From Chloroflexota bacterium (GTDB taxonomy: Bacteria; Chloroflexota; Anaerolineae; UBA4142), in the NCBI GenBank assembly GCA_016223105.1, contig JACRPR010000072.1, positions 7,982 to 71,981 of the forward strand: DNA of 64,000 nt, in the 5' to 3' direction. The position numbers were made by a program, and so were the translations under genes. The stretch's first letter is position 1. The number at the start of each line of letters is the position of its first letter. This document shows positions 9,408 through 48,072 of the stretch, in pieces. The notes beneath the pieces are model-generated. The model worked only from the letters and a program-made list of their open reading frames with translations. It had not been told where the DNA came from and searched no databases.

Positions 9408-9498
9408 GGATTCGACCCCTTCGGCTTCGTTCAGGGCAATTGGCTTCAGCGCGCGGAGCGGTTTGTCCGGCCGAGCCACCGCGTAAACGCTCGACTCC
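9408..9498 (+). repeat. MITE-like element, family M, long form
   Basis: GGATTCGACCCCTTCGGCTTCGTTCAGGGCAATTGGCTTCAGCG...CCGCGTAAACGCTCGACTCC. Abuts the stop codon of gene 9500..10186. Confidence 0.8.
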
Positions 9499-10218: not shown

Positions 10219-10277
10219 GGACTCGACGCTTTAGCGGGTTGCTCGTCAAGCGAGTCACCGCGTAAACGCTCGACTCC
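10219..10277 (+). repeat. MITE-like element, family M, short form
   Basis: GGACTCGACGCTTTAGCGGGTTGCTCGTCAAGCGAGTCACCGCGTAAACGCTCGACTCC. Confidence 0.8.
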
Positions 10278-10365
10278 ATCATTTGTTCCTCATCTACGAT
10301 CAAGAATCGTCTTCAGGTAGGAATCGAATGTAGCATAGCGGAGTTGGGGTTGTCAAGGTGGGAAA

Positions 10366-10402: not shown

Positions 10403-10409
10403 ATCGCTT

Positions 10410-10802: not shown

Positions 10803-10836
10803 CGCGTTATCCAACCTCTAACAATTCGACTTCGAA

Positions 10837-11088: not shown

Positions 11089-11104
11089 TTTGATCTCCTT
11101 GGAA

Positions 11105-11180
11105 TTTAGATGTTGGAAATTGGAGGTTAGAAGTTGGAACGCGCAATCCAACTTCCAACTTCTAACATCCAACATCCAAT
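11105..11180. repeat. Word-repeat hairpin (GGAAGTT/GGATGTT words) downstream of metK
   Basis: GATGTTGGAAATTGGAGGTTAGAAGTTGGA-acgcgca-ATCCAACTTCCAACTTCTAACATCCAACATC. Confidence 0.75.
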
Positions 11181-11181
11181 T

Positions 11182-12387: not shown

Positions 12388-12406
12388 TTATTTGCTCCTC
12401 ATTTTT

Positions 12407-12467
12407 GATTTCAAATTTCAAATTTCAGATTGATGAATCTGAAATCTGCAATCTGAAATCTGAAATT
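12407..12467. repeat. Word-repeat hairpin (GATTTCA/AATCTGA words) between ahcY and metK
   Basis: GATTTCAAATTTCAAATTTCAGATT-gatga-ATCTGAAATCTGCAATCTGAAATCTGAAAT. Confidence 0.8.
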
Positions 12468-12468
12468 C

Positions 12469-13764
<1,296 letters not shown>

Positions 13765-13794
13765 TTAGAAGTTGGATGTTGGAAGTTAGATGTT

Positions 13795-13879
13795 GGATTC
13801 GACCCCTTCGGCTTCGCTCAGGGCAATTGGCTTTAGCGGGTTGTTCGCTCGCGGAAAAACCGCGTAAACGCTCGACTCC
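13795..13879 (+). repeat. MITE-like element, family M, long form
   Basis: GGATTCGACCCCTTCGGCTTCGCTCAGGGCAATTGGCTTTAGCGGGTTGTTCGCTCGCGGAAAAACCGCGTAAACGCTCGACTCC. Confidence 0.85.
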
Positions 13880-13924
13880 CACTCGCGACTCAACATCTTT
13901 TGTGGAACAATTGATTTTTGAATT

Positions 13925-14506
13925 TTACAAACGACGCGAAATTTCGAAACGACACGCGGAATGATTTTGCGCGATGCACGCGCTTTCGCGCGCGTCCATT
14001 TCCACGTCGAACAAAAACGAAACGAGTCCGGCGATATAGCCGGCGAGCATCGCGCAACGCGGCATCAACTTGGCATCTTCGATTCGAGTCGCCGCGCCGC
14101 GCGCGGTGAATTTCGCGAGCGCGCCTTGCGCGAGAAATGAATTGTGCGCGATCACTGCGCCCGCGTGTTGCGCGTAATCGAGTTGGAAATCCAACTTTGC
14201 CCAACCGAGCGCGGCGTAAAAATCGGCGTAAAATTTTTCGAGTGCGGGTTTATCGGCAACGTCAATCTTGTTCGCGTTCGCGAGCGCGGCGGCGGTGCGT
14301 TTGCCGGCGCGCTTGCCGCCGAGATACAAACGCGCGTCCACAAACTTTTCGCCAAGCACGAGATAGAAATCGTCCATCACGTCGGCAATCGTGGACGCAC
14401 TCATCACAAACGCGCGCACGCCGATAAATTTGAGCGCGGCATCGTGATCGAATTGGAGTGTGCCGCTCAATTTGTACAAGTTCGACCCAGCATCGGGCGT
14501 TGCCAT
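13925..14506 (-). CDS. Stand-alone V4R (4-vinyl-reductase-like) small-molecule-binding domain protein
   Basis: ATG 14506 with GGAGG RBS; the longer ORF start lies in a repeat. C-terminal pattern CAMLAGYIAGLVSFLF...ESACIAQNHSACRFEI is typical of V4R domains. Confidence 0.55.
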   Translation of the reverse strand: MATPDAGSNLYKLSGTLQFDHDAALKFIGVRAFVMSASTIADVMDDFYLVLGEKFVDARLYLGGKRAGKRTAAALANANKIDVADKPALEKFYADFYAALGWAKLDFQLDYAQHAGAVIAHNSFLAQGALAKFTARGAATRIEDAKLMPRCAMLAGYIAGLVSFLFDVEMDARESACIAQNHSACRFEISRRL

Positions 14507-14530
14507 TGTCAGACCTCCGTCAGTCTGCGT

Positions 14531-14564
14531 AGACCCGAAGGGTTTTCGAAAACCCTTCGAGTCT
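14531..14564. repeat. Palindrome family P copy, intercistronic
   Basis: AGACCCGAAGGGTTTTCGAAAACCCTTCGAGTCT, between the kinase stop (14568) and the V4R start (14506). Confidence 0.85.
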
Positions 14565-14567
14565 GGT

Positions 14568-15512
14568 TCACAAGTCCGGCGCGCTCCCAAACGCGTCGCG
14601 ATAACGCGCGGCAAATTCTTGCAAAGTGTATTTGTGATTCTGCGTGCCGTACTCTTCGAGCGCGTACGTCGCGGCAAGACTACCCAAGCGACCGGTATTT
14701 TCCCACGCCGATTTTTTCAAATAGCCCTTGATGATCCCGGCGCGATACGCGTCGCCGACGCCGGTCGGATCGGCTTGGCGACGCGCCGACACAATCGGCA
14801 CCGTGATCATTTTGCCGTCCGCGTGGATGCGCGATCCCTTGTCGCCGAGCGTAATGATCAGCGTTTGCGTTTCGTGCGCGACCTGGTCATCGTTCCAGCC
14901 GGTTTTATTTTTCAGCATTTCAAATTCGTACTCGTTGACAATCGTCAGCGCGGAACCGCGCACGCCGTCCGCAAGTTCGTCGCCGCTCAAGCGAATGATC
15001 TGCTGGCTCGGATCGTAAATGTACGGCAGATTCAATTCTTTGCACTCGCGCGCGTACTGCACCATTGCGCGCGGATCGTTCGGTGAAATCACGACGAGAT
15101 CAATTTCGCCGGGCGCGTGTTGCTTGAACGAAAGCGTGTGCGCGTGCGCCATCGCGCCGGTGTAAAACATCGCGATCTGATTTTGCGTGCCGTCGGTACT
15201 GACGAAAAACGACGCGGTGAAATCGTCTGCGATTTCGATGATCGCGCGCGTGTCAATGTTATTCGCTTCGAGCCACGCGCGATAATCGGAAAAATCTTGA
15301 CCGACCGTCGCCATAATCCTGGGGCGCTCGCCGAGCAGAGCGAGATTGTACGCGATGTTCGTCGCGACGCCGCCGCGCTGTTTCTTCATCGAGTCCACGA
15401 GAAACGAGACGGACAAGGTTGCGATTTTTTCCGGCAAGATGTGATCTTTGAAATAGCCGGGAAATTGCATAATGTAATCGTAGGCAATCGAGCCGGTAAT
15501 GAGGACGCTCAT
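14568..15512 (-). CDS. PfkB-family sugar/nucleoside kinase, probable adenosine kinase
   Basis: 314 aa, ribokinase-like fold, C-terminal DPTGVGDAYRAG anion-hole motif. The adenosine-kinase call is inferred from the ahcY/metK/mtnA context. Confidence 0.7.
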   Translation of the reverse strand: MSVLITGSIAYDYIMQFPGYFKDHILPEKIATLSVSFLVDSMKKQRGGVATNIAYNLALLGERPRIMATVGQDFSDYRAWLEANNIDTRAIIEIADDFTASFFVSTDGTQNQIAMFYTGAMAHAHTLSFKQHAPGEIDLVVISPNDPRAMVQYARECKELNLPYIYDPSQQIIRLSGDELADGVRGSALTIVNEYEFEMLKNKTGWNDDQVAHETQTLIITLGDKGSRIHADGKMITVPIVSARRQADPTGVGDAYRAGIIKGYLKKSAWENTGRLGSLAATYALEEYGTQNHKYTLQEFAARYRDAFGSAPDL

Positions 15513-15589
15513 TCGAACTCCAGTAAATAGTGATCAGTGAACAGTGGACAGTGAACAGTGAACAGGTTTATTCTTCCACGATAAATGCC

Positions 15590-16066
15590 TTATAATTTGA
15601 ATCGCCGCGCAAACTCGGCGGGTGTCAAAATCGGGATTCGCTGAAATGATTTGAGTACGGTCAGATCGCGATCGCCGGAGACGATGTAATCCGCATCGCC
15701 TTCAACCGCGCAAGCGAGAATTGCTACATCTTTGGGATCACGCAACGCGCTTACCGGTTTTTTAATGCCAGGCGTGATCACCGCGCTCGTCACCAAGAAA
15801 TCTACCAACGCGTCGCCGCGCTCTGCCACCTGTGCGTATTTTTTAGTGATATGTGGTCGGCGGATGGTAGTTTGATATTCCTCGATCAAGTAGCGTGAGG
15901 TGAGTAGCATGATCTGACCATTCCGCGCCGCTTGAAAAATCCGCGCGGAAGGACTGAGCGTTACGATGCTCGCACTGACCAGGACATTGGTGTCAATGAC
16001 GACTCGGGGCAAATTTCTCCGCGCGAATTTCGTGAACCACGCGATTAACATCCGCCATAACTTCAT
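15590..16066 (-). CDS. PIN-domain toxin (VapC-like)
   Basis: RVVIDTNVLVSA N-terminal acidic motif and later D residues (GDADYIVSGDRDL). The start is ambiguous (ATG 16066, ATG 16051 or an internal TTG). Overlaps the antitoxin 3' end. Confidence 0.7.
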   Translation of the reverse strand: MKLWRMLIAWFTKFARRNLPRVVIDTNVLVSASIVTLSPSARIFQAARNGQIMLLTSRYLIEEYQTTIRRPHITKKYAQVAERGDALVDFLVTSAVITPGIKKPVSALRDPKDVAILACAVEGDADYIVSGDRDLTVLKSFQRIPILTPAEFARRFKL

Positions 16067-17307: not shown

Positions 17308-17535
17308 AAAAAAAAATCTCTCCGCGCAAGAGAGAGAACGTCAAAACACGCGTCTCATCTCCCAAGCCAAAGCACAGCGGCTTGCCGGAATTGGCACCGA
17401 TTTAGTTGGATAGTTGATTAGTTGGATAGTTGGTTAGTTGAATGTCAACTATCCAACTATGAAACTATATAACTATTGCACTACCGGTTGCCGAGGTTTC
17501 ACAGGGCCGATCCCTCCACCTCTCTGGATGAGTGT
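17308..17535 (-). promoter_or_regulatory. SAM-I (S-box) riboswitch with an intrinsic terminator, 5' of mtnA
   Basis: Minus-strand RNA: CUCAUCCAGAGAGGUGGAGGGAUCGGCCCUGUGAAACCUCGGCAACC-[~95-nt P3]-GGUGCCAAUUCCGGCAAGC...GGGAGAUGAG. This is followed by UCUCUC-uugcgcg-GAGAGA and U9. Confidence 0.88.
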
Positions 17536-17559: not shown

Positions 17560-17588
17560 TTTATAGCACAAGCGAAATGTTTTGTCAA
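17560..17588 (-). promoter_or_regulatory. Sigma-70-like promoter for the riboswitch-mtnA unit
   Basis: Minus strand TTGACA (17583-17588), 17-nt spacer, TATAAA (17560-17565). Confidence 0.5.
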
Positions 17589-19903
17589 TTTGAAATTTGA
17601 ATCGTGGTGAGCGTGATGTGATCGTCATTGTTCACCGGCAAACGCGCGCCGCCATTCGCGCGATACACGCCGACAAAAATTTTATACGCGCCGGGTGAAA
17701 GATCGCGCGGGATAATCAACGCGTACTCGTCCGCGACAATTTCGCCCGCGTCCCACAATGAAGTTGGATACGCGCCGCTCTGCGGCTGATCATCTTTTTG
17801 CGCGATGATTTTGCCGGTCGCGTCAACGAGATGCATGAACACGGTGTACTCTTGATCTATCGCGCCGCGCGCTTGCCAAAATAATTTCACGCGCAATGAT
17901 TCGCCATCGCGCGCGACCGAATGTCCGACAAGCGCGAGTTGATCCGCGAATTCATAGCGCGCCGGATTTTCGATTTGCACACGCGCTTGCCCAGCGATTT
18001 TGAAGCGCGCGAGCGTCGGCGTGATCGCGTTCCTGCGCGGATCGCGCGCGACCAGGTTTTCGAGCGGCACGCGGCGATAGAGCGTTACGTCAATCCGTCC
18101 GCCGCCCGGTCCGCGCGCGTCGCGCGATAACGGCACGCGATATTCGTCCGCGATAATTTCGCCGACCTGCCACAATCGCGTCGGATACAAACCGCGACCG
18201 GGGAACGCATCCCAGCGTCCGATCACATCACCACGCGCGTCGAGCAAGCGAAGCCCCACCGAAAAATCTTCCGCGATGCGTTCACGCGCGCGCCAATAAA
18301 TCGTGATCGGCAATTCGCCACCGGGCGCAACCGATTTTTGCGCGAGCGCGTAACCGATCAATTCGATCTGATCGTCGAAAATAATTTGCGTCGGATTTGG
18401 CACGCGCGCTTCATCGGAAAAACGCGCGGGCAAAGTGTACGTGGGCGCGATGAGCGTGAAAGGGGCGAGCGCGGCAAAAGTTAAAAGTAAAAAGGTAAAA
18501 ATAAAAAGTAATCCGTAATGCGTGATGCGTAAAATCTGAAATCTGAAATGTGAAATCTGAAATCCGCTCAGCCCGTAGACAAACAAAACTGCCACCGCGC
18601 TGATTGCCGGAAAAATCAGACGACCTTGCGATGCCATCGTGAGCCACGTCCAACGCACCAGCGAGAGATTGATCAGAATGAACCACAGCGCGGGCAACGC
18701 GATCAAACCGGGCAACGCGCGGCGAAAAATTCCGATCACCAAACCAATCAACGCGATCAGCGTGAACGCATCGAGAAGTGTGTACACAATTTCCGGCGCG
18801 ATGATGTTGACGCCGCCGAAATTGCCCCAAAACGAAATGCGAAATCCTTGCAGTTCGCCGAGCAAACTCGCGAACGAAACCGGCGTCGCGCGCCCACCAG
18901 CAATCGCGACCCAAACATTGAACGCTAGCGGATCGTCGTACAGCATCCAGTTGCGCGCGTACCACCAGAACGCGAGCGCGACGACGAGCGCGGCGCAAAC
19001 AAAACTGCCCTTGATAATTTCGAGTGGGTGAGCGGGTGAGTGGGTGAGTGGGAGAATTGCTCCCCCTCTCCCTCTCTTCCCCTCTCCCACTCGGTTTCGC
19101 CATAATAGATACGCGAACACAATCGCCGCGACACCGAGCAAACCCAGGTTACTAATTTTCGTGAGCGCGCCGAGACCCAGCACGATCCCAAGAATGACAA
19201 ACCGTTGCATCGTCGCACCACGCGTAACAAGTCGCGTCATCAGCAACAGCGCGAGCGTCGCGAGCATCGTCGCGAGGTTGTCATTGTTCACCGACGCGCT
19301 GATGAAAATAAACATCGGATTGCACGCGACCAGCGCGGCGGCGAATGCGGGAATGTCATTGCGAGCGAAGCGAAGCAATCCCCACCGCGCGGTGGAGATT
19401 GCTTCGTCGCCAAGGTCGCTCCTCGCAATGACAATTTCGCGCGCGAGCGCGTAGGTCAGCGCGACGGTGAGCGCGGAAAATATAATCGAGAGGAACCGGA
19501 TGAGGTGAACCGCGAGCGCGGTATTATGCCACGGAAAACTTTCCGCGTTCGTGTGGACGATCAAATTCTTGTTGCCAAAAACCAGGGGGATGCCAATTTT
19601 CGCATGCGGGTTGAGCCACACGCGCTCCGGCAAATCGCGCGCGTCAATCCAAAATGTCGCGAGCGCGCTGATCGCATAATACAGCGGTGGCTGTCCGCCC
19701 TCTTGCTCCCACAACGTTTTCACATTCGGGTCTTGGATCGGCAATCCATTCCCGGTCGCGAGATGTTGGATGAACGGATAATGCCAAATCTCATCGCCCG
19801 CTTCAAAAATCGGCGTGAGGATCGAGTACGTGATCGCAAGCGCGAGGAACGCGACCAGGATCAAAATCAGCGCGCGATTATTTGCCCACATAGATCGTTT
19901 CAA
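17585..19903 (-). CDS. GT-C fold membrane glycosyltransferase (GT39/ArnT/PMT-like), paralog 1, with two C-terminal beta-sandwich repeats
   Basis: 772 aa, more than 10 TM helices, first-loop EAGDEIWHYP acidic motif. The C-terminus carries two ~130-aa repeats (YWRA...DFSV / FWQA...EYTVFMHLVD...). Contains several in-frame repeat-derived segments. Confidence 0.7.
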   Translation of the reverse strand: MKRSMWANNRALILILVAFLALAITYSILTPIFEAGDEIWHYPFIQHLATGNGLPIQDPNVKTLWEQEGGQPPLYYAISALATFWIDARDLPERVWLNPHAKIGIPLVFGNKNLIVHTNAESFPWHNTALAVHLIRFLSIIFSALTVALTYALAREIVIARSDLGDEAISTARWGLLRFARNDIPAFAAALVACNPMFIFISASVNNDNLATMLATLALLLMTRLVTRGATMQRFVILGIVLGLGALTKISNLGLLGVAAIVFAYLLWRNRVGEGKRGRGGAILPLTHSPAHPLEIIKGSFVCAALVVALAFWWYARNWMLYDDPLAFNVWVAIAGGRATPVSFASLLGELQGFRISFWGNFGGVNIIAPEIVYTLLDAFTLIALIGLVIGIFRRALPGLIALPALWFILINLSLVRWTWLTMASQGRLIFPAISAVAVLFVYGLSGFQISHFRFQILRITHYGLLFIFTFLLLTFAALAPFTLIAPTYTLPARFSDEARVPNPTQIIFDDQIELIGYALAQKSVAPGGELPITIYWRARERIAEDFSVGLRLLDARGDVIGRWDAFPGRGLYPTRLWQVGEIIADEYRVPLSRDARGPGGGRIDVTLYRRVPLENLVARDPRRNAITPTLARFKIAGQARVQIENPARYEFADQLALVGHSVARDGESLRVKLFWQARGAIDQEYTVFMHLVDATGKIIAQKDDQPQSGAYPTSLWDAGEIVADEYALIIPRDLSPGAYKIFVGVYRANGGARLPVNNDDHITLTTIQISN
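18481..18565. repeat. Word-repeat segment (AAAAGTA, GATGCGT and AATCTGA words) inside GT-C paralog 1
   Basis: TTAAAAGTAAAAAGGTAAAAATAAAAAGTAATCCGTAATGCGTGATGCGTAAAATCTGAAATCTGAAATGTGAAATCTGAAATCC, translated as FQISHFRFQILRITHYGLLFIFTFLLLT. Confidence 0.7.
19022..19093. repeat. Word-repeat hairpin (GGGTGAG / CCCTCTC) inside GT-C paralog 1
   Basis: GAGTGGGTGAGCGGGTGAGTGGGTGAGTGGGAGAATTGCTCCCCCTCTCCCTCTCTTCCCCTCTCCCACTC, translated as GEGKRGRGGAILPLTHSPAHPL. Confidence 0.7.
19355..19433. repeat. Family C 79-bp hairpin element inside GT-C paralog 1
   Basis: GTCATTGCGAGCGAAGCGAAGCAATCCCCACCGCGCGGTGGAGATTGCTTCGTCGCCAAGGTCGCTCCTCGCAATGAC, translated as ...SDLGDEAISTARWGLLRFARNDI. Confidence 0.85.
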
Positions 19904-21674
19904 TTGTCACCGCGTCGCCAAACGACTGACCATTGGCGTCAACCATGGGCAAACGTTCCCCCGTTGCGCGATCATAAAAACCAACGCGGATCGCATAATT
20001 CCCCGGCGGCGTGTTCGCGTCAATCGGCAACACCGCGCCGTGCTTCCATTGGTCGCTCGCGCGCAAGCTACGCGTCGCCATTTGCGCGTCCGCGCCGGCG
20101 ATTTGATTACCGGCGGCATCAACGAGGTGGACAAAAATCGTATAGTCCCGATCGGTGTTTTCCAAACTCTGGAGATAAAAAATCGCCGCGAGATATTCGC
20201 CGGGTTGCACGCGCGCGCTTGCCAGATCGAAACGCGCCAATTGAATCGCGGCATTGAAATTTACCGGGAGCGGCGGCGCGGCGCGCGCATCGAACGTCGG
20301 CGCGACCGGGATTTCAATCGGACGCTCTTGTTCGTCGAGATAAATAATTAGCGGATGCGGATGCGCGCGCAAATCGGGACTGACATGCGATTGCACACTT
20401 CCGACCGCGATCGTTTTGCCGTACCGCCCCAGAAACATTCCTTCGAGACTGTCAATGTACGTGTTGATGAAATAGATGTACGTGCCGGGCGGGAACGTGG
20501 GATGGCGTTGGCGAATCGCGCGAAAGACCGCGCGCTCGTCGAGCGACATGGACGCGTATAGCGCGGCGGCTTCGTCAATTCGCAATCCATTGCCGATCAA
20601 AAAAAGCGCGACGAGCAACCCGATGCTCCACACCGCAACGCGCCGCCGATTTTGCGCGAGCCACACCACGAGCATCGCCGCGGCAATTGCGAACGCGAGC
20701 GCGGGCGCATACAAATAGCGCGATTGCGGTTTGGGAAACGGGATCACCGGGAGCAAGGTAACCAACGCGACCAATCCCAGGAATACCAGCGCGCGATTTT
20801 TTTTGCGCCACGCGCTCCATCCCGCGAACGCATAAATGCCGAGCGCGAGAATTTGATCCGCGACCGGGTTAATGCTCCACGGCACAACCAGTTCCGTCAA
20901 GTATTTGATCAAATTGGGCGCGAGGTGACTGCCCGCGCTATAACCGACCTGGCGCGTGCTAACGCCGTAGGTAATCGAGCGCAAGTCGAACGCGATCAAC
21001 GTCAGCCCGGCGAAACCGAACAGCGCGTAGCGCCGGAATAAATCGAACACGCGGAACGGTCGGCGCAACAAAATGATCTCGATGCCAAGCAGAACTGCCG
21101 GCAGAACAATGCTCGTCTCTTTGGTCATCAACGCAAGACAATAAAACAACAGGGCGCGCAAATAATCGCGCGCGCGCGCGCGTTCGAGATACGCGATCCA
21201 AAACCAGGTCGCGGCGAGCGCGAACGCGGTCGCCTCGTTTTGCGGCTCGATGGGCCACATCGCGACCCAACTGATTGTCGGCAGAGTCACAAAAAATAAC
21301 GCGGACAATAACGCGAGCCACGGATGGTGGGACAGCCGGCGCACAAGCGCGAACAACAACAAGCCGTTCAGCAAATGCAGTAACATCCAAACAACGTGAA
21401 AGCCAAACGGATCCGCGCCGAACAAGGTGTATTCGGCTAACCACATCACTCCAAACATCGGACGATACCAAATGAATTGGACGCGCGGATCGAAAAAGAA
21501 ACGCAGATACTCGCCGAGATCGAGTTTCACCAACAGCGTGATGAACGACCAATCGTCCCACAAAAAACCAATCCGCAAGCCGGGCGCGAAAAAAATCGCG
21601 ACGACCGCGCTGATCAGTAAAACGCATAACGCGGTGGAAAATTTTTCAATGGCTTTGATTTTTGAACTGGTCAT
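19878..21674 (-). CDS. GT-C fold membrane glycosyltransferase (PMT/TMTC-like), paralog 2
   Basis: ATG 21674. First-loop GFLWDDWSF motif. Polytopic N-terminal domain plus a C-terminal domain (FYLQSLENTDRDYTIFVHLVDAAGNQIAGAD...). Confidence 0.65.
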   Translation of the reverse strand: MTSSKIKAIEKFSTALCVLLISAVVAIFFAPGLRIGFLWDDWSFITLLVKLDLGEYLRFFFDPRVQFIWYRPMFGVMWLAEYTLFGADPFGFHVVWMLLHLLNGLLLFALVRRLSHHPWLALLSALFFVTLPTISWVAMWPIEPQNEATAFALAATWFWIAYLERARARDYLRALLFYCLALMTKETSIVLPAVLLGIEIILLRRPFRVFDLFRRYALFGFAGLTLIAFDLRSITYGVSTRQVGYSAGSHLAPNLIKYLTELVVPWSINPVADQILALGIYAFAGWSAWRKKNRALVFLGLVALVTLLPVIPFPKPQSRYLYAPALAFAIAAAMLVVWLAQNRRRVAVWSIGLLVALFLIGNGLRIDEAAALYASMSLDERAVFRAIRQRHPTFPPGTYIYFINTYIDSLEGMFLGRYGKTIAVGSVQSHVSPDLRAHPHPLIIYLDEQERPIEIPVAPTFDARAAPPLPVNFNAAIQLARFDLASARVQPGEYLAAIFYLQSLENTDRDYTIFVHLVDAAGNQIAGADAQMATRSLRASDQWKHGAVLPIDANTPPGNYAIRVGFYDRATGERLPMVDANGQSFGDAVTIETIYVGK

Positions 21675-21690
21675 CTGCGCTAGTCCAATT

Positions 21691-23589
21691 TTACGGTTGG
21701 CATTGACACACATTATTCGCGCTGGTCGCGCAATGGCTGGTCACGCGAATGGATTTGAGCGCGATTTCGGCGGGCGCGTCGGTCGGATCGAAACGGAGTT
21801 GTTCGATCTGATCGCCGAAAAATAATTTGCCGCTCGCGCCAAGGTTGACGCGATAGGTGCGCCATTCGCCGTCGGCTTGAATCGGGAACGCCTCGCTAAT
21901 GCCCGGGAAAAAATCGGCTTGATCGGTTGCGCGCCAAAATAGTTCGCCGCGCGTCGTCGGCGTCGCGGCGCGCGCGCGGAGCGTGATCTCGACAGCGGCA
22001 ATCGCAAGCGCGGGCATGTTGATTGGCGGACTCGCCAGGATCGGATCGTTGCCGAGGACGCGCAGTCCACGCGCGTCGTCGGGCGCGTCCATCTCGGCGA
22101 GATCGTTCCAGGTCGCCCATTCGCGCAAGCCCTGCGCGACCGTCCACTCGATTGCCGGGCGCGCGTGTCCCAAGCATTGCGCGCGCGCGCTCAACGCGTC
22201 GCGCACAGCGGGATGTTCGATCAAACGTCGCCGCGCGTACTCGATGAAAAAGATATTCGCGCGCGGCGCATCCACAATCGGAAATTTTGCGCCGAGCGTC
22301 GCATCCACCGCGCTCCGGTGGGAAATACCGAGCGCCATTTTCAAATTCAAATCGTCGAGAATCACCGGCACACCCCGCGCCATTGTGGGAATGCCGATAA
22401 AATAAAAACGCGTGCCCGGCGGAATTTGCGGAAATAGCCGCTCCATTTCTTGAACCACGCTTCCCGCGATATTTCCCGCCGTCGCCCAATTCTCGACGCG
22501 CCCGTTCAAGCCCATCGCGTACGCGCCGATGAAAAACACGGACAGCGCAAAACGCGCGACGCGCGCCCCCCGCATCGTTTGCGGAAACGGTTGCGCCACG
22601 ATTGCCGCGAGCGCGATCACAAATCCGGCGGAGGGTGTGTACGCGAGGCGCGGCGCGGGATACGCGACGGAGAGCGAAGGCATCAACGAAATGATCGTCC
22701 ACGCAATTCCCAACCACACAGTTTTGCGCCGACGATAAATCAACGCGAGGAGCGCGAACACGCCCAGCAAGGTCCAATACATCTCGACGCTGAGATCGGC
22801 AAAAAAGGGCTGGACGAATGTGATCGTATAATAATGCGCGAACAAGTTGATCACAATGTCGAGCGATTGCGTACTTTGATACAAGGATGGCGGCGCGAGA
22901 AAGGTGAAACGAATTAGGGCGTAACCGGCGAGCGCGCTCCACATCACGATTTGCGCGCGCGCGATGCGCCAGCGCAGGGTTGGAAAATGAAATAGCAGAT
23001 CATAAACGAGCAACACTGCCGGGAGCGCGAGCGTATTCTCTTTGGTCAAGTTCGCGCAGAGCATCGCGATTAACGCGACACCTAAATACAATCGTTTGGC
23101 GCGCGTGCGGAATAACCCAAAAAAAGTTGCGGACAGTAAATAGAAAAACGCGCTCAAGACATCGGTGCGATCCGAAATCCACGCGACCGATTCCGCGTGA
23201 TACGGATGCAACGCGAACAACGCGCCGGCGATAATGCCGATCCAGCGTTGGCGCGTTGTGAATCGCGTCAACACATACACGAGAAATGAACTGAGCGCGT
23301 GAAGCAGGACATTCGTCGCGTGATAGCCGAATGGCGCGCGCCCCCACATTGCGAAATCAATCAACCACAGCCATTGCACAAACGGACGCAGGAAAACAAT
23401 GCCATAGTACGTGAACAACCATTCCAGCAATCCGTGACCTTGCAGGTACGCGTCGGCATTGTCAATCAAATGCGTCATATACGAATTGTCGTCAATCAGA
23501 AAAAAACCGGACAAGCCGGGCGCGTACGCGGCAAAGCTAATGCAGATCAATCCGACGAAGATAAATCGTGAACTATGTTTCGCGATCAT
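21691..23589 (-). CDS. GT-C fold membrane glycosyltransferase (PMT/TMTC-like), paralog 3, with a divergent C-terminal domain
   Basis: ATG 23589. First-loop FFLIDDNSY motif. Polytopic. The C-terminal ~230 aa is unlike the other four paralogs. Confidence 0.6.
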   Translation of the reverse strand: MIAKHSSRFIFVGLICISFAAYAPGLSGFFLIDDNSYMTHLIDNADAYLQGHGLLEWLFTYYGIVFLRPFVQWLWLIDFAMWGRAPFGYHATNVLLHALSSFLVYVLTRFTTRQRWIGIIAGALFALHPYHAESVAWISDRTDVLSAFFYLLSATFFGLFRTRAKRLYLGVALIAMLCANLTKENTLALPAVLLVYDLLFHFPTLRWRIARAQIVMWSALAGYALIRFTFLAPPSLYQSTQSLDIVINLFAHYYTITFVQPFFADLSVEMYWTLLGVFALLALIYRRRKTVWLGIAWTIISLMPSLSVAYPAPRLAYTPSAGFVIALAAIVAQPFPQTMRGARVARFALSVFFIGAYAMGLNGRVENWATAGNIAGSVVQEMERLFPQIPPGTRFYFIGIPTMARGVPVILDDLNLKMALGISHRSAVDATLGAKFPIVDAPRANIFFIEYARRRLIEHPAVRDALSARAQCLGHARPAIEWTVAQGLREWATWNDLAEMDAPDDARGLRVLGNDPILASPPINMPALAIAAVEITLRARAATPTTRGELFWRATDQADFFPGISEAFPIQADGEWRTYRVNLGASGKLFFGDQIEQLRFDPTDAPAEIALKSIRVTSHCATSANNVCQCQP

Positions 23590-23602
23590 TGAGCGACTCG
23601 CA

Positions 23603-25408
23603 TCATTCCGCAATTACAATCGGGTCAATGCTGATTTTTTCCGGCAAAGTCGTGATGCTGATTTCGAGCCGATACGAACCCGGTTCGACCTCGAGCGGCA
23701 ATTGAAACGGGGCGATGGTCAACTCGCCTAACTTTCCCAGCCCGGCAATAATTTTTTGAGCGGACGCGACCGCGCGTCCATCCGGCGCGATCAGACGCGC
23801 CTCCGCGTGAATCACCCGTTCAAAATGATCGGTCACGCGCAAATACAGCAAGCCCAAAACCGGCTCGCCGCGTTTCAGATTCGCGCGCACGAGCTCGTAG
23901 CCGGCGAGTTGGATCAAGCCGGTGGATGGCGTGGGCGCGGGCGACATGCGCGCGGCGATGTCTTTTTCGACGCGTTGCTCTTTTTGATTGTCTTGCGCGT
24001 CCCAGTAAATCACAAACGCGTTCGCGCGCGCGCGCAAATTCGCCGGGCGTCCGTCATCGGTCGCGCGCGCGGAGACGCGCGCGCCATAATACCACAACAT
24101 CATCCCGGACAAATTTGCGCCCGGCACCGGCGGATTGAAAAAATAAAAATACGTGTCGTCCGGCAACGTCGGATGCGCTTGGCGGATGTTGCGAAACGGC
24201 ACGCGCGCGACGCGCCCATTTTCCGCGAACTCGCTCGCGGCACGCGCGATGTTCACGCTTCCAAACAGCGCGACGCCAACGATCAGCGCAAACGCGCTCC
24301 AAACGCGCGGCACACGTCCCGCGATGCGATCAATTCCGAGTGCGAGCAAAATCGCGGACGCGACGAGCGGCAAGTACAGAAAACGATTCGCGACAAACGG
24401 AAATGGCGCGACCGGCAAAATCGCGAGCGCCGCGCCGACAAGCGCGGGCAACAGCGCGTACCATTTTTTCGCGACGATCAAATACGCGAGCAATCCCGCG
24501 CCAAGCGCGAGCGCGATATAATTGAACGGCGGTGACGCGATCCACGGAAACGCGAGCGTGCCAAGATAATCCGCAAGGTTCTGCGCGATTTGGATCCCCG
24601 GATCATAGCCCTCGCGATTGACGAACACGCTTCGCCGCGTAACGATGTACTCGATCCACGCGTACGGCACAAGCACAAGCGCGAACGGCGCGTACCGTTT
24701 TGCCAATTGCGCGCGCGTCGCCGGTTGCGCGACGATGAAACGATCCATCAAGAAAAGTGTGATCGGCAACGTAACGCCAATCTCTTTTGAAAACAACGCG
24801 AACAAAAACGCGAGGAACGCGGCGACCGGCAAGATCGGACTCGACCCCTTCGGCTTTCGCTCAGGGCAATTGGCTTTAGCGGGTTGTTTAGCTGAACCGT
24901 CTACCGCGTCAACGCTCGACTCCCGATCTCTGCGCGCGGATAAATGCTCGAACCAAAACCAGGTCGCGAGCAAATAGAAAAATGTTTCGAGCGTGTCCAC
25001 CACGCCGGGCCAAAAAACGGCGAGCGCGGCAGTCGGGAGCGTTGCGAAAATCAGCGCGGCGAAAAACGCGGCGCGCGCGTTGCGCGTGATCCGGCGCACG
25101 AGCGCGAGAATCAAAAATGAATTCGCGAGATGAAGCAGAACGTTGACGAGATGATAGCCGAGCGGATTCGTTCCAAAAATTGTATTGCCGACGCGCCACA
25201 ACATGCCTTGCACCGGGCGATACCACGCGGTCTGCGCGCCGGGATCGAAATACTTTACAAGATACTCGGACAAATTCAAACGCCCGGCGAGATCGTAAAA
25301 AATCCAATCGTCGCCGTAGAAACCGAGCGCGAGCGCGGGAAAATACGCGAGCAAAACCGCCGCGCTAATGATCCCAAATTCGAGCGTAATTTTTTTTCGG
25401 TCGTTCAT
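23603..25408 (-). CDS. GT-C fold membrane glycosyltransferase (PMT/TMTC-like), paralog 4
   Basis: ATG 25408 overlaps the stop of paralog 5 (ATGA). First-loop GFYGDDWIF motif. Carries an 87-bp family M insertion in frame. Confidence 0.65.
   Translation of the reverse strand: MNDRKKITLEFGIISAAVLLAYFPALALGFYGDDWIFYDLAGRLNLSEYLVKYFDPGAQTAWYRPVQGMLWRVGNTIFGTNPLGYHLVNVLLHLANSFLILALVRRITRNARAAFFAALIFATLPTAALAVFWPGVVDTLETFFYLLATWFWFEHLSARRDRESSVDAVDGSAKQPAKANCPERKPKGSSPILPVAAFLAFLFALFSKEIGVTLPITLFLMDRFIVAQPATRAQLAKRYAPFALVLVPYAWIEYIVTRRSVFVNREGYDPGIQIAQNLADYLGTLAFPWIASPPFNYIALALGAGLLAYLIVAKKWYALLPALVGAALAILPVAPFPFVANRFLYLPLVASAILLALGIDRIAGRVPRVWSAFALIVGVALFGSVNIARAASEFAENGRVARVPFRNIRQAHPTLPDDTYFYFFNPPVPGANLSGMMLWYYGARVSARATDDGRPANLRARANAFVIYWDAQDNQKEQRVEKDIAARMSPAPTPSTGLIQLAGYELVRANLKRGEPVLGLLYLRVTDHFERVIHAEARLIAPDGRAVASAQKIIAGLGKLGELTIAPFQLPLEVEPGSYRLEISITTLPEKISIDPIVIAE
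24837..24923 (+). repeat. MITE-like element, family M, long form, in frame inside GT-C paralog 4
   Basis: 87 bp (29 codons), translated as ESSVDAVDGSAKQPAKANCPERKPKGSS. Paralogs 2 and 5 lack these residues at the aligned loop (WFWIAYLERARARDYL... / WFWITYLEKNSWQSYV...). Confidence 0.85.
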
Positions 25409-27216
25409 TCCACAATCTGAAACGGCGCAAGCGAAATCGAATCGCGGGTGGGCGCACCGATCACCGGCACGCGTGCGCCGGTCGTCGCGTCGTACAAACC
25501 GATTTGAATTTTGTATGCGTTGCCCAGCGGCGCGTCGCCGGGCACATTCAAAACGATCGCGTCCACGACGAGCCGCCGCGTTTCCCATTGCGTCGTCGGC
25601 AGTTTGCCCTTGCGCGGCGCGCTATCGGATTGCGCGATCACTTTGCCGTCCGGCGCGAGCAAATGCGCGAACACGGTGTAATCAGTTTCGATCCGATCCG
25701 TCGCGCGCCAATACAACATCAGCACAAGCGGCGCGCCGGGTTTGAGCGTCGCGCGCGCGATCTCGAATCCTTCGAGTTGGATCGACGCGGCGAATTGGAT
25801 CGGCAGATCGGGCGCACTGCGCGTCGCGATATTTTTTTCGACCGGAATTTCGACCGCGCGGCGCGCGGCATCGAACAAGTACACAAACGCGTTTTGATGC
25901 GCGCGCAGATTCGCGTAATCGTCCCAGCCGCCGACCGTAACCCCGCGACCATACCGCCCAAAAAACATTCCCGATAATCCGCCGGTGACCGGCGTGATCG
26001 GGTCGATAAAATAGAGATGCGTGTCCGGCGGAAACGTCGGATGCGCGCGTTCGATATCGCGGAACGGCACGCGCAATTGGCGCGCCCACTCCGCCGCCGC
26101 GATTGCGGAATCGTTCAGCGCGAACGCGTTGCCGAGCGCGAGCAAGGCGAGCGCGCTCGCGGCAGTCGCGCGCAAATTCAAGCGCGCGCGCGCGGAATCG
26201 AACAACGCGCCAAGAAAAATCGCGCCGGCGAACAGCGGCAAGTACAAATAGCGATGTTCGAGAAATGGGAACGGCAAAACCGGGATGAGCGTGATCAGCG
26301 CGAACACGCAGAGCAACACGAGCGCGCGACTGCGTTTACGAATGATCACGGTCGCGAGCAAAATCAGCGCGAGCGTCGTCCACGCGTAGGTGATGAACGT
26401 CCCGGTAACTTCGGGATTGAGATCAATCGAGGGAAAATCGCCCCAGGGGAAAAAGAACAGGACGAGGTATTGCGAAAAAATGTACGCCATCTTTGCGCCG
26501 ACGTGCCAACCGAACACGCCGACGAATGTGTGCGTGCTTTGGCTCGTGGATTGGATCAGCAAAAAGATGCCGCCGAAAATCGCGAACAGTGCGTACTCGC
26601 GCATCAGCCGCGCGAGCACAATCGGTTTGTGCATCAACCACCACTCGATCAAAAATAAAATCGGCGGTAGTGTGATCGCGGTTTGCTTTGCCATCAACGC
26701 GAGGACGAACATCGTAACCGCAAGTACGTAACTCTGCCAGGAATTTTTTTCGAGATACGTGATCCAAAACCAAATGCACGCGAGGTACGGCATCGTCGCG
26801 AGCGGATCAACAATGCCAACCCAGTTGACGCCGGAAATGTAGACGGTGAAGGTCGCGTAGAAAAACGCGCTCGCGAAGCCGACGCGCCATTTGCGCGTAA
26901 CGCGCGCGACGAGCGCGTAGAGCAAGAGCGCGTTGATCGCGTGAAAGCCATTATTGACGATGTGATACGCGTTCGGATTATTTCCAAAAATTTGCCACTC
27001 GATAAACCATTGAATCGCCTGGAGCGGACGATACCACACCGTCCACACGCGCGGATCGAAAATCGCGACGAGCGCGTTCGACCAATCGGTGCGCCCGGCG
27101 CGTTCGACGTAAATCCAATCGTCGAGATAAAAGCCCATTCGCAGATTAGGGTGATAGGAAATCAAAACGATCGCGCCGATAACGAGCGCGCCGATCAGAG
27201 GAATTTTGCGCGACAT
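25405..27216 (-). CDS. GT-C fold membrane glycosyltransferase (PMT/TMTC-like), paralog 5
   Basis: 603 aa. First-loop GFYLDDWIY motif. C-terminal domain LYWRATDRIETDYTVFAHLLAPDGKVIAQSD... Confidence 0.65.
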   Translation of the reverse strand: MSRKIPLIGALVIGAIVLISYHPNLRMGFYLDDWIYVERAGRTDWSNALVAIFDPRVWTVWYRPLQAIQWFIEWQIFGNNPNAYHIVNNGFHAINALLLYALVARVTRKWRVGFASAFFYATFTVYISGVNWVGIVDPLATMPYLACIWFWITYLEKNSWQSYVLAVTMFVLALMAKQTAITLPPILFLIEWWLMHKPIVLARLMREYALFAIFGGIFLLIQSTSQSTHTFVGVFGWHVGAKMAYIFSQYLVLFFFPWGDFPSIDLNPEVTGTFITYAWTTLALILLATVIIRKRSRALVLLCVFALITLIPVLPFPFLEHRYLYLPLFAGAIFLGALFDSARARLNLRATAASALALLALGNAFALNDSAIAAAEWARQLRVPFRDIERAHPTFPPDTHLYFIDPITPVTGGLSGMFFGRYGRGVTVGGWDDYANLRAHQNAFVYLFDAARRAVEIPVEKNIATRSAPDLPIQFAASIQLEGFEIARATLKPGAPLVLMLYWRATDRIETDYTVFAHLLAPDGKVIAQSDSAPRKGKLPTTQWETRRLVVDAIVLNVPGDAPLGNAYKIQIGLYDATTGARVPVIGAPTRDSISLAPFQIVE

Positions 27217-27964: not shown

Positions 27965-27978
27965 CGCGCGAAAAAATT

Positions 27979-28144
27979 ATCCGCGAATCACGCGAATCGC
28001 GCGAATAAAATTTTCAGTACCGCCGGATTCGACGCTTCAGCGGGTTGCTCGTCCTTACGCACCACCGCGTAAACGCTCGAATCCAGACAATTGCCGAATT
28101 TGAAAATCAATAATTGTTCGCGGCGATTCGCGTGATTCGCGGAT
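27979..28144. repeat. Long-range word hairpin (CGCGAATC words) with a family M element in its loop
   Basis: ATCCGCGAATCACGCGAATCGCGCGAA (27979-28005) pairs with TTCGCGGCGATTCGCGTGATTCGCGGAT (28117-28144). Confidence 0.7.
28025..28084 (+). repeat. MITE-like element, family M, short form
   Basis: GGATTCGACGCTTCAGCGGGTTGCTCGTCCTTACGCACCACCGCGTAAACGCTCGAATCC. Confidence 0.85.
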
Positions 28145-28186
28145 AAAAAATCTTGCGAAGGTTTTGGCTTCGCAAGATTTTTTTTA
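28145..28186. terminator. Bidirectional Rho-independent terminator between the MBL gene (+) and lgt (-)
   Basis: AAAAAA-TCTTGCGAAG-gttttgg-CTTCGCAAGA-TTTTTTTT. Confidence 0.8.
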
Positions 28187-33719: not shown

Positions 33720-33779
33720 GGATTCGACGCTTCAGCGGGTTGTTTACCTGCGCGAGCAACCGCGTAAACGCTCGATTCC
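33720..33779 (+). repeat. MITE-like element, family M, short form
   Basis: GGATTCGACGCTTCAGCGGGTTGTTTACCTGCGCGAGCAACCGCGTAAACGCTCGATTCC. Confidence 0.85.
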
Positions 33780-34810: not shown

Positions 34811-34957
34811 TTGGAAATTGGAAATTAGAAATTGGAAGTTGGAAGACGTGATACGTGATGCGTGATAATCTCACGCATCACGCATCACGTTTTACGTTTT
34901 ACGTTTTACGTTTTACGTTTTACGTTTTACGTTTTACGCTTTACGCTTTACGTTTTA
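34811..34957 (-). repeat. Composite intercistronic element: (ACGTTTT)x10 tandem, a GATGCGT-word hairpin and TTGGAAA words
   Basis: Ten 7-nt units at 34887-34956. Hairpin ACGTGATACGTGATGCGTGA-taatc-TCACGCATCACGCATCACGT at 34846-34890. TTGGAAATTGGAAATTAGAAATTGGAAGTTGGAAG at 34811-34845. The substrate-binding-protein stop at 34955 lies within it. Confidence 0.85.
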
Positions 34958-36889
34958 CTTGATCGTCCAACTTTCCGCGTAGAACGGAATGTATTTGCCT
35001 TCGTTCACATCATAGTACGTGAACGGCGGATAGAGCGCATTGCTCAAGACCGCGCCGCTTGCCATGATGTTGTCCGTCGAATAGAGATTGTAATTCGCTT
35101 TCGGTGGTTGCACGTACGGGTACGAGGTCTTGAATTCTTTCGCGCGATTCGTCGCGCTCGGTTTGAGTTGACCGCTCAAGAGCTGGCGCGCGACCGGCGA
35201 ATTGTTCTGATTGTTTTTGTAAATCTTGTCGTCCACCGGCAACCAACCGGTCACCCGCGTCTTGGTGTCAATCGGATCGGTGAGGTAGCGTTCGAACATC
35301 ATCAAGACGGGCAAACTGTCGTTGAAGAACGATGCGACATCGGCGATGTAGGGTTTTTGTTTTTCCGCGTCAAACCCTTCCGCCATCTTGTCCACCCATT
35401 CCTTGATGTTGATCTCTTTGCCATCCGCGGTTTTTTGCTTGAACGGCAAGTTGATGCCGCGTTCGCCTTCGTTGCCTTCGGGATTGTTTTTCCAACCCGC
35501 GCTCACCACACCCGGGCGCAAGTTGTAATCGAAGGAAACGTACGGGTGAAAGTACGTAAAGCGGAAACCAATGTCCATCGAAATTTGATACTTGCCGGCT
35601 TTGTGGAGGTTGGTGCGTTCGGACGATTGGTACGGCTTGACCGTGATCTTGATGCCGAACTTGGTTAATTGTTGCGCGACGTTTTCGGACGACGCGAGGT
35701 ATTCGGTGAAATCGGCGGGCACGCTCAATTCAAATTCCAGTTTCTTGCCCTTGTCATCCACCCAAATGCCATCCGCGCCTTTTTTGAAATTGAGCCCAGT
35801 CAACAACGCTTCGGCTTTTTTCACATCCGCATCGTACGTGTTGAGTTTGGCAAGTTGCGCGGCGGAAAGCCAGGTCGGCACTGCGGCATCGGTAAAGCCG
35901 GCTTCGTACTTGACCGGGCGGCACGCATCGCCGAACGCAACCTTGCAATTTTCAACGCGATCAATCGCGTACGCGAATGCCTGGCGCACTTCTTTTTTGT
36001 TCAGCGGATAGACATCGTTGTTAAAGTACATCCCGGGTCCGTTCGTCCCAGGTCCGCCGAGCACGACCATGTGATTGCCGACCGCGCGAATCGCTTGCAA
36101 ATTCGCGGGGCTGTACGCGTTCGAGGAATAGTCCATATCGTTCGAGAGATACAATGGCATATCCTGAACGGTGTCGCCCCAGTACACGGTAACTTTGTCG
36201 AAATCAATCTTGTCCGCGTTGAACCCGGACGCGTTCTTGACCATCGTGAATTGCGCTTCGGTAACTTGTTTCGGATCAATGTTGAACGGACCGTAGACGA
36301 TCGCGCTCGGCGGGCGGAACGCGTTCATTTCGTCGAGCGTTTTGGTTACGTCCGCGCTTTTGCGGTCAGTGTTATTTTTGCGAAAACCGGCGGCGGCGTC
36401 CATCCATTTGCCGTACTGCGCGTACGGACGCGTGACGGTCGCGCGCACAATCGTGTCGAGAATCGCGGGACCGGGGGTTTTGATCGTGAACTCGACGGTC
36501 GCGTCATCTTTCGCGACGACATCGTTCAGCGCGTTCCAGGTCGAGCTGGTTTGCATCCACAAAATGTTGTACGTGCCGACGACATCTTTCGAGCTGAACG
36601 CGGAGCCGTCGCTCCATTTCATGCCCTTGCGAAGATTGATCGTGATCGTTGTAACGCCGGGCGCGGCGGGTTTAGTTGGCTCTGCCGGTTTCGTGGCAAC
36701 CGGCGCGGTCGTCGCCGCGGGCTTGGTGGGTTCCGGTGCTTTGGTTGCCGGCACCGCGGTCGGCGGCACCGCCGCCGTTGGTTTCGGCGCGTCGGTCGGT
36801 TTAGGCGCGGGCGTCGGCGTTGGCGCGGCGCACGCGACGAGCGCGACAAGCGCGATCAGCAATGTGAGCGCGAGCAAAATCTTTTTCAT
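34955..36889 (-). CDS. ABC transporter substrate-binding lipoprotein, family 5 (peptide/nickel/oligosaccharide type)
   Basis: Lipobox LVAC followed by a ~60-aa Pro/Thr/Ala tether. Family-5 body (INLRKGMKWSDGSAFSSKDVV...). Confidence 0.8.
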   Translation of the reverse strand: MKKILLALTLLIALVALVACAAPTPTPAPKPTDAPKPTAAVPPTAVPATKAPEPTKPAATTAPVATKPAEPTKPAAPGVTTITINLRKGMKWSDGSAFSSKDVVGTYNILWMQTSSTWNALNDVVAKDDATVEFTIKTPGPAILDTIVRATVTRPYAQYGKWMDAAAGFRKNNTDRKSADVTKTLDEMNAFRPPSAIVYGPFNIDPKQVTEAQFTMVKNASGFNADKIDFDKVTVYWGDTVQDMPLYLSNDMDYSSNAYSPANLQAIRAVGNHMVVLGGPGTNGPGMYFNNDVYPLNKKEVRQAFAYAIDRVENCKVAFGDACRPVKYEAGFTDAAVPTWLSAAQLAKLNTYDADVKKAEALLTGLNFKKGADGIWVDDKGKKLEFELSVPADFTEYLASSENVAQQLTKFGIKITVKPYQSSERTNLHKAGKYQISMDIGFRFTYFHPYVSFDYNLRPGVVSAGWKNNPEGNEGERGINLPFKQKTADGKEINIKEWVDKMAEGFDAEKQKPYIADVASFFNDSLPVLMMFERYLTDPIDTKTRVTGWLPVDDKIYKNNQNNSPVARQLLSGQLKPSATNRAKEFKTSYPYVQPPKANYNLYSTDNIMASGAVLSNALYPPFTYYDVNEGKYIPFYAESWTIK

Positions 36890-36905
36890 TTTCTTCTCCT
36901 CCGAA

Positions 36906-36960
36906 TTAGTTGGATAGTTGAATTGTTGAATTGTTGGATAGTTGGATAGTTGTTGGTTGA
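36906..36960 (+). repeat. One-armed word run (GGATAGTT/GAATTGTT words)
   Basis: TTAGTTGGATAGTTGAATTGTTGAATTGTTGGATAGTTGGATAGTTGTTGGTTGA. Confidence 0.7.
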
Positions 36961-47899: not shown

Positions 47900-48072
47900 G
47901 GAGTCGAGCGTTTACGCGGTAACTTGACAAAGGAGATTGATCGAGAATTCGCGTCAACGAATCGCTTCGCGCAACGAATAAACGAATCGCGGGCGGTGTC
48001 AGCATATTCGTTTATTCGTTCAAAATTCCTAGACGCGGAATTTCCAATGCAACCCGCTAAAGCGTCGAATCC
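47900..48072 (-). repeat. Family M element in inverse orientation with a ~110-bp insert replacing the variable core
   Basis: Ends are GGAGTCGAGCGTTTACGCGGT... and ...CAACCCGCTAAAGCGTCGAATCC. The interior contains its own hairpin GAACGAATAAACGAAT/ATTCGTTTATTCGTTC. Confidence 0.7.

Follow-up and report, generated by a model that had tools for sequence, protein, structure and literature searches.

The 64-kb window examined here (the whole stretch of DNA that was analysed, from contig JACRPR010000072.1 of a groundwater Chloroflexi metagenome-assembled genome, MAG) carries an array of five tandem minus-strand GT-C glycosyltransferase genes (PMT_2/ArnT-like), and the fourth of these, paralog 4, contains in frame a copy of a short palindromic repeat, family M, at 24837-24923. 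The reading that we favour, with a probability of roughly 0.8, is that a long-form family M copy of the REP/REPIN type (repetitive extragenic palindromic units and inverted pairs of them) landed in frame in the turn between transmembrane helices 4 and 5 (TM4-TM5) and has been carried there since as a tolerated passenger. A preliminary description of this DNA had placed the element in frame in paralog 4, reported that paralogs 2 and 5 lack the segment, and proposed that the insertion is younger than the paralog duplication and that the reading frame survived it; all four points were borne out by the comparisons described below.

Family M is represented by seven copies in the window, six of them intergenic, and thus behaves as a repeated, mostly intergenic, imperfect palindrome. 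The in-gene copy is 85% identical over 89 nt to the intergenic copy at 13795-13879 (E value 9e-21), and arm matches are expected by chance at 0.35 per shuffled window. All copies share a layout in which arms of about 21 nt, GGAYTCGACGCTTYAGCGGGT on the 5’ side and ACCGCGTAAACGCTCGAYTCC on the 3’ side, inverted and conserved, enclose a centre of about 16-20 nt that is unique to each copy, which is the arrangement of inverted units around a variable spacer seen in REPINs. Each arm forms its own 3-bp mini-hairpin, and three window copies, the in-gene one included, bear a block of 26-27 nt after the first nine bases, which defines the long form. The short forms fold into hairpins with scores (z -2.5 to -3.6) clearly below those of shuffled controls. 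No target-site duplication was found at the full-length copies compared in the window and at related loci. The four-base sequence GATC that flanks the in-gene copy was considered as a possible duplication and rejected, the two occurrences being 92 nt apart and not fitting a gain of 90 nt.

On the gene strand the element is read as D-R-ESSVDAVDGSAKQPAKANCPERKPKGSS-P, with a split codon at either end; its in-frame position in paralog 4 was confirmed. It had been described as exactly 29 codons, and this stands in the sense that the 87 nt amount to 29 codon-equivalents (28 whole codons plus two split codons), but the peptide quoted for it has 28 residues and the net gain to the protein is 30 amino acids. 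Of the six frames of the element two are free of stop codons, and the gene reads one of these. Among the 80 homologues aligned, the WFW and KE motifs are separated by 25 residues in 75 proteins, by 26 in one and by 55 in paralog 4, which gives the net gain of 30 residues (90 nt). The segment is absent at the aligned position from paralog 3 as well as from paralogs 2 and 5.

Both the empty and the filled state of the site were found in relatives. On a 166-kb contig of a related MAG (L073, JACRBM010000088.1), a lactamase_B gene is followed by PMT_2 genes of 606, 567, 602 and 797 aa. The second of these genes, encoding P0004 (567 aa, about 63% identical to paralog 4), directly follows the equivalent of paralog 5 and therefore occupies the array position of paralog 4, which makes it a positional orthologue; its loop has the un-inserted length of 25 residues, and it thus represents an empty site. 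P0007 has the same gene layout. Together with P0003 and P0006, these proteins are 58-65% identical to paralog 4, whereas paralog 5 is only 38% identical, and all four have the plain 25-residue loop. In a neighbour-joining tree, the un-inserted clade of P0003, P0004, P0006 and P0007 is sister to the inserted pair, and P0005 and P0008 come next.

The other member of the inserted pair is P0002, which is about 84% identical to paralog 4, bears a homologous insert, and is represented by contig L001 and the JGI contigs L014 and L015. At the DNA level these three contigs carry the same long-form element as the window, in the same orientation and frame and with the same 3’ junction, and the loop of this orthologue is therefore not the repeat-free ancestral loop that the preliminary description had considered as evidence to the contrary. 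The in-gene copies also have in common an additional T in CTTTCGC, which is missing from the intergenic long forms. At the upstream junction, L001, L014 and L015 lack 12 nt of host sequence. The in-gene copy is missing from L016 and from L073. Since the positional orthologue P0004 is empty, the sequences support an insertion after the array duplication, and since the 84%-identical orthologue is filled, they support an insertion before the split from the lineage of L001, L014 and L015.

The open reading frame (ORF) with the element at the same site is intact in four assemblies from different samples (the window, L001, L014 and L015). Between the window and L001, the ratio of non-synonymous to synonymous substitution rates (dN/dS) is 0.29 for paralog 4 (dS 0.335, 595 codons) and 0.205 for paralog 5. 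The intact ORF in four assemblies and the dN/dS of 0.29 together effectively rule out a pseudogene, the other state that had been named as contrary evidence, as well as an assembly artefact, and the comparison indicates that paralog 4 has been under purifying selection since the lineages split. The 30 insert codons give a dN/dS of 0.49 compared to 0.28 in the rest of the gene, with too few sites to separate the two values.

An association of family M with a transposase of the expected kind was found in related genomes. In L003 (JACRMI010000006.1), a gene for a 178-aa protein at 1609-2144 lies between inverted family M copies at 1491-1567 (+) and 2158-2232 (-). This protein matches the NCBIfam equivalog model NF047646 for REP-associated tyrosine transposase (RAYT) with 110.5 bits against a cut-off of 80 and also matches Pfam Y1_Tnp, while its score against the IS200 model NF033573, 25.7 bits, is below the cut-off of 55; a 61%-identical homologue carries the NCBI name REP-associated tyrosine transposase. 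Three homologous RAYT genes (P0085, P0091 and P0102, on the six contigs L075-L080) are all flanked by the same or variant hairpin arrays, and in L078 exact family M arms lie on either side of the RAYT. In the variant arms, CGC-TTTA-GCG has become GGC-TTTA-GCC or GCC-TTTA-GGC and the other arm has changed to match, so that, by these paired changes on both sides, each variant arm keeps its 3-bp mini-stem. The flanks of the RAYT genes in L003 and L075-L080 range from single copies to tandem arrays of up to six units in a row at a spacing of about 75 nt. Most of the RAYT homologues come from contigs of about 1 kb, which is the pattern expected of repeat-embedded genes.

A scan of one genome per species for the 3’ arm returned at least 11 loci, three of which were chance matches without a 5’ arm. 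Among the matches listed, family M occurs in the groundwater Chloroflexi MAG JACRMI01 and in Anaerolineales UBA4826; JACRMI01 has a GC content of 52-54% compared to 56% in the window and is therefore a different genome. No copy was found in the 21.7 kb around the un-inserted orthologue in L073, a stretch too short to judge the whole genome. With its inverted arms, variable spacer, absence of duplication and flanked RAYT in relatives, family M can be classed on these sequence features as REP/REPIN-like.

To place the insert in the protein, paralog 4 was modelled with AlphaFold2 from the 80-sequence alignment, which gave a mean predicted local distance difference test score (pLDDT) of 94 and a predicted template modelling score (pTM) of 0.92. 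The top Foldseek match in the PDB was ArnT (5f15), followed by ALG12, the STT3 subunit of oligosaccharyltransferase and AftD, and the C-terminal beta domain resembled carbohydrate-binding modules. A sequence-profile search of the PDB returned chance matches only, so that the link to solved GT-C structures is one of fold. The model predicts that paralog 4 has a GT-C fold, with a multi-helix membrane domain and an extracytoplasmic domain. Its helices span residues 2-21, short segments in the loop that bears the DD motif, 82-108, 111-132, 138-170 (TM4), 192-207 and 209-226, with a coil at 171-191. In the model, TM4 is prolonged by the first 9-10 inserted residues, and the remainder form a flexible loop; pLDDT over residues 161-190 drops to values of 86, 65 and 74, compared to at least 96 in the adjoining 10-residue blocks.

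GT-C enzymes bear catalytic acidic residues in the first extracytoplasmic loop, and at this place, right after TM1, paralog 4 has the motif G-D33-D34-W, in which D33 is invariant and D34 at least 90% conserved among the 80 homologues. In ArnT and other GT-C enzymes the N-terminus is inside and the DD loop outside, which would put the TM4-TM5 turn in the cytoplasm; clusters of lysine and arginine (DRKK, RRITRNAR, SARRDR, KKW and RIAGRVPR) are found at alternate loops. The odd number of helices (11) would leave the C-terminal sugar-binding-like domain outside. The Pfam PMT_2 model is passed by paralogs 1, 2 and 5 and by the orthologues P0003, P0004, P0006 and P0007. Paralog 4 has no Pfam PMT_2 match, and the NCBIfam Pmt and ArnT models match it only below threshold. 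That the insert masks the domain was considered and rejected, as a Pfam rescan after deletion of the insert in silico still gave no match.

These observations can be joined in a single history. Members of the IS200/IS605 superfamily move as single-stranded DNA without duplicating their target, and from the association with family M we infer that a RAYT-type Y1/HUH transposase would have moved a long-form REPIN in this way. The element would have entered paralog 4 after the array had formed and before the split from the L001/L014/L015 lineage. Insertions within genes are normally lost. The survival of this one may have had three causes: its length leaves the frame unchanged, the gene reads it in one of the two frames, out of six, that contain no stop codon, and it entered at the apex of a short loop that is probably cytoplasmic, across the membrane from the extracytoplasmic catalytic DD loop. 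The insert would then have drifted, and in the model it now appears as about 30 extra residues that lengthen TM4 into the cytoplasm and end in a flexible coil. As the enzyme is still under purifying selection, the insert is most likely a tolerated passenger; the mover, the cytoplasmic side and the neutrality of the insert are inferred.

Several results weigh against this account. The gain of 90 nt exceeds the 87-nt element by 3 nt, and there is no duplication to account for them. The long form folds no better than shuffled sequence (z of about 0), and the GTAG/CGTC tag is at neither arm end of family M; GACG, which is complementary to CGTC, is found only within the 5’ arm. The 64-kb window contains neither a RAYT gene nor a direct sign of family M mobility, so that the link to a RAYT comes from related genomes. 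Translation of the insert is predicted from the intact in-frame ORF, and the turn that bears it is placed on the cytoplasmic side only as probable, by counting helices from the DD loop and by the lysine and arginine clusters. Lastly, the parts of the element have diverged unevenly between the window and L001. Measured against the divergence at 4-fold sites (0.192), the 5’ arm plus mid block has too few changes (2 of 50; P = 0.002), the centre too many (9 of 16; P = 0.001), and the 3’ arm (4 of 21) a number that is not unusual. Both changes in the 5’ arm and mid block are non-synonymous, with no synonymous change in about 16 codons. Such unevenness is not predicted for a simple neutral passenger; it may result from gene conversion from other copies, from nucleotide-level constraint on the arm, or from a hypermutable hairpin loop.

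The uneven divergence could mean that the in-gene REPIN is still an active member of a REPIN population, through gene conversion or RAYT recognition within the ORF, or that it acts as an RNA or DNA signal inside the operon, with the turn as a preferred landing site and not simply the sole tolerated one. We give this an outside chance, because the 5’ arm and mid block are nearly unchanged, the centre has evolved faster than neutral sites, and at least three different repeats have been found at the turn in one small clade. Co-option of the insert, as a helix extension or loop that serves the enzyme (e.g., in contact with a partner), or alternatively continued action at the nucleotide level, as a RAYT substrate or as an operon-tuning structure, seems to us unlikely. 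The insert has been kept across a split of dS 0.33 in four assemblies, its first 9-10 residues continue TM4 at a pLDDT of about 86, and the half encoding PAKANCPERKxKGxS is the half with only 2 differences in 50 nt, both non-synonymous, against 19% at 4-fold sites. This conserved half is, however, the part conserved in all family M copies, so that conversion between copies would explain it. The dN/dS of the insert is not below that of the rest of the gene, the centre and the adjoining host codons diverge fast, and the L001 lineage has lost 12 nt at the junction. Unrelated repeats at the same turn in sister orthologues also fit tolerance of extra residues better than a specific role.

That the window and L001 lineages each gained a long-form family M copy at the same site independently is very unlikely. 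In its favour are 9 differences over the 16 positions of the centre, upstream junctions that differ by 12 nt, and the other inserts in P0005 and P0008, which suggest that the turn is a hot spot or the sole tolerated site; but the 3’ junctions are identical to the base, subfamily, orientation and frame are all shared, the extra T in CTTTCGC is common to both copies and missing from the intergenic long forms, and the two genes are sisters in the tree. It is scarcely credible that the segment is an ancestral loop lost elsewhere, that paralog 4 is decaying as a pseudogene, or that the insert arose as an artefact of assembly at a repeat. The gene does lack the PMT_2 match of paralogs 1, 2 and 5, and repeats break metagenome assemblies, as the many RAYT contigs of about 1 kb illustrate. 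Yet 75 of the 80 homologues have a loop of exactly 25 residues, in DNA the segment matches intergenic repeats at 85-92% identity, four independent assemblies concur on an ORF that is intact and has a dN/dS of 0.29, the AlphaFold model is confident, and deletion of the insert does not restore the Pfam match, so that the insert is not the cause of its absence. We therefore retain the single insertion of a long-form family M copy, tolerated in the turn, as the preferred explanation.

The same turn carries other inserts in sister orthologues. P0005 has 41 extra residues at the TM4-TM5 turn; the DNA that encodes them (L002 at 1655-1780) combines sequence from two further repeat families, both of which have copies in the window, at 58384-58420/32479-32511 and at 19354-19410. 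P0008 has 24 extra residues at this position, a different insert that is known from the protein alone. As judged from these sequences, the TM4-TM5 turn appears to have gained other inserts independently in P0005 and P0008.

Repeats were also observed within other genes and structures. Paralog 1 bears two further palindromic inserts in frame, both on the minus strand, and these appear to lie in other cytoplasmic turns. The insert at 19354-19432 (GTCATTGCGAG...CTCGCAATGAC, read as VIARSDLGDEAISTARWGLLRFARNDI) is partly repeated at 4720-4754 and has a relative within the P0005 insert, and the insert at 19021-19093 is a purine/pyrimidine hairpin read as VGEGKRGRGGAILPLTHSPAHPLE. A 657-aa PMT_2-type ORF in L005 (JACRMI010000164.1, 2684-4657) contains an intragenic short-form family M copy of 58 nt at about 3435-3493, read as ...RSRAFTRLSSSTQPAKASSP..., with the 3’ arm in a different frame from that of the paralog 4 copy. 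In a SAM (S-adenosylmethionine) riboswitch (RF00162, 17352-17534, minus strand, 74.7 bits), a 77-nt repeat hairpin replaces the 6-nt terminal loop of one helix and coincides with an octamer-repeat hairpin at 17397-17483. This riboswitch is the sole Rfam match in the window, and no Rfam family covers the family M element. No promoter-like sites were found in or beside the element, and terminator-like sites were not above shuffled expectation. Small hairpin repeats in this genome occur wherever the folded product tolerates a longer loop.

The coordinates of the in-gene element, the other family M copies and the GT-C genes are collected below.

Table. Parts of the in-gene family M element, other family M copies in the window, and genes of the GT-C array (window coordinates).
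Feature	Coordinates	Strand	Form and evidence
Family M element in paralog 4, long form, 87 nt	24837..24923	+ (family orientation; gene reads reverse complement)	Repeat alignment
5’ REP arm, outer part, GGACTCGAC	24837..24845	+	Alignment of copies
27-nt mid block, CCCTTCGGCTTTCGCTCAGGGCAATTG	24846..24872	+	Long-form subfamily only; extra T common only to the orthologous in-gene copy in L001
5’ REP arm, inner part, GCTTTAGCGGGTTG, with mini-hairpin CGC-TTTA-GCG	24873..24886	+	Stem covaries in variant families (GGC/GCC, GCC/GGC)
Copy-specific centre (spacer)	24887..24902	+	Different in each copy; 9 differences in 16 nt from the orthologous copy in L001
3’ REP arm, ACCGCGTCAACGCTCGACTCC	24903..24923	+	Differs from the family consensus at one position
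Family M copy, long form, 91 nt, intergenic	9408..9498	+	Repeat alignment
Family M copy, short form, 59 nt	10219..10277	+	Repeat alignment
Family M copy, long form, 85 nt, intergenic	13795..13879	+	Closest to the in-gene copy among the copies in the window
Family M copy, short form, 60 nt, between convergent genes	28025..28084	+	Repeat alignment
Family M copy, short form, 60 nt, intergenic	33720..33779	+	Repeat alignment
Family M copy, both arms intact, expanded 131-nt interior	47900..48072	-	Repeat alignment
GT-C paralog 1	17585..19903	-	772 aa, PMT_2; two other in-frame palindromic inserts
GT-C paralog 2, without insert	19878..21713	-	611 aa, PMT_2
GT-C paralog 3, without insert	21691..23613	-	640 aa
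GT-C paralog 4, host gene	23603..25408	-	601 aa; 100% match to P0001 = NCBI HZC40_09885 (Chloroflexi MAG)
GT-C paralog 5, without insert	25405..27216	-	603 aa, PMT_2

The longest ORF of paralog 4 reaches 25588, but its start is supported as the ATG at 25408 by the orthologues and by the ATGA overlap with the stop codon of paralog 5. This overlap suggests translational coupling of the two genes. The content of the array varies among relatives. In L001 (5997-7826), genes of 453 and 133 aa with no nucleotide match to the window replace paralogs 3 and 2 (19878-23613), and L073 has four GT-C genes (8178-15903) compared to five in the window.

Two of the other family M copies are associated with further repeats. 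The 131-nt interior of the copy at 47900-48072 holds AACGAATAAACGAAT-type repeats and is probably a nested insertion. The copy at 28025-28084 is nested in an inverted repeat of CGCGAAT-type heptamers (27975-28145), and this whole block is missing from the syntenic part of L001, which has a plain terminator-like hairpin there. As the copy sits within this larger indel, the comparison with L001 did not provide a clean empty site for it. The window as a whole contains at least 60 direct-repeat families and 102 inverted pairs, so that small hairpin repeats are unusually abundant in this genome. Tandem repeats of heptamers or octamers lie between genes as inverted pairs at, e.g., 2574-2649, 5636-5700, 13754-13804, 34858-34956 and 36885-36955, and further arrays of this kind are at 39866-39971, 42548-42629, 46352-46433 and 62287-62368.

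If the history proposed here is correct, it extends REP/REPIN-RAYT biology to uncultured groundwater Chloroflexi and provides a dated and polarised case of a REPIN translated inside a polytopic membrane enzyme, for which empty, filled and diverged filled sites are all known. The TM4-TM5 turn of this GT-C family takes 24-41 extra residues, which may be useful for engineering tags. There is also a caution for annotation, in that peptides of the RFARND or QPAKA kind within proteins from repeat-rich MAGs are derived from repeats and are not domain features.

The closest parallel to the paralog 4 insert is provided by intragenic REPs. In several species REPs have been found within ORFs, mostly as dimers encoding 20-30 residues, and the recB genes of two Xanthomonas species carry different REPs at about the same site; the authors suggested that linkers and loops tolerate such inserts (Di Nocera et al. 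2013, PMC3733652). Like these elements, family M consists of short palindromes that are mostly intergenic, with a minority wholly inside ORFs. Family M differs in having no terminal GTAG or CGTC tag, although these tags define the two REP superfamilies of that study and not RAYT association as such. The host here is an uncultured Chloroflexi (Anaerolineae-like) lineage and the target a polytopic membrane GT-C enzyme, whereas the study stresses replication and repair genes, and for the present insertion both its age and the selection on its host gene were measured.

In REPIN-RAYT systems, two inverted REP units with a spacer of lower conservation between them make up a long, non-autonomous hairpin (PMC3116915; 10.1101/2022.05.22.493013), and the RAYT is a Y1/HUH transposase gene that is usually single-copy and flanked by repeats (Bertels and Rainey 2011, PMC3116915; RAREFAN preprint 10.1101/2022.05.22.493013). 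Family M resembles these systems in its inverted units, spacer, flanked RAYT and absence of target duplication. REPINs are, however, described as extragenic, with most work on Proteobacteria, whereas one family M copy is predicted to be translated in frame; the RAYT link of family M is found only in related genomes, and the 27-nt mid block of its long form has no described counterpart.

Two other kinds of element also add residues to proteins. Rickettsia palindromic elements (RPE), the classic in-frame example, are described as in-frame palindromes in many unrelated genes that are compatible with protein fold and function (Ogata et al. 2000 and 2002, as summarised in PMC10969869). The likeness to family M, an in-frame palindrome in a protein gene, is one of behaviour only. 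By the same description, RPE are about 100-150 bp long and occur in obligate intracellular Alphaproteobacteria, and they encode a conserved peptide in one frame, whereas the two intragenic copies known of family M differ in the frame in which they are read; the RPE sources cited report no RAYT link. In-frame fusions of MITEs (miniature transposable elements with inverted repeats), such as Coxiella QMITE, ERIC and BOX (PMC5896051, PMC10969869), are similar in that a host protein gains residues from a small repeat that is non-autonomous. Classical MITEs are bounded by terminal inverted repeats and a target-site duplication and originate from DDE-type insertion sequences (IS), while family M has no duplication and is linked to a Y1 transposase; a classical MITE was thus considered and rejected, the inverted ends being present and the duplication absent. 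The paralog 4 insert is a further example of the phenomenon established in intragenic REP dimers and Rickettsia elements, and it adds to that set while leaving the current view of how such elements work unaltered.

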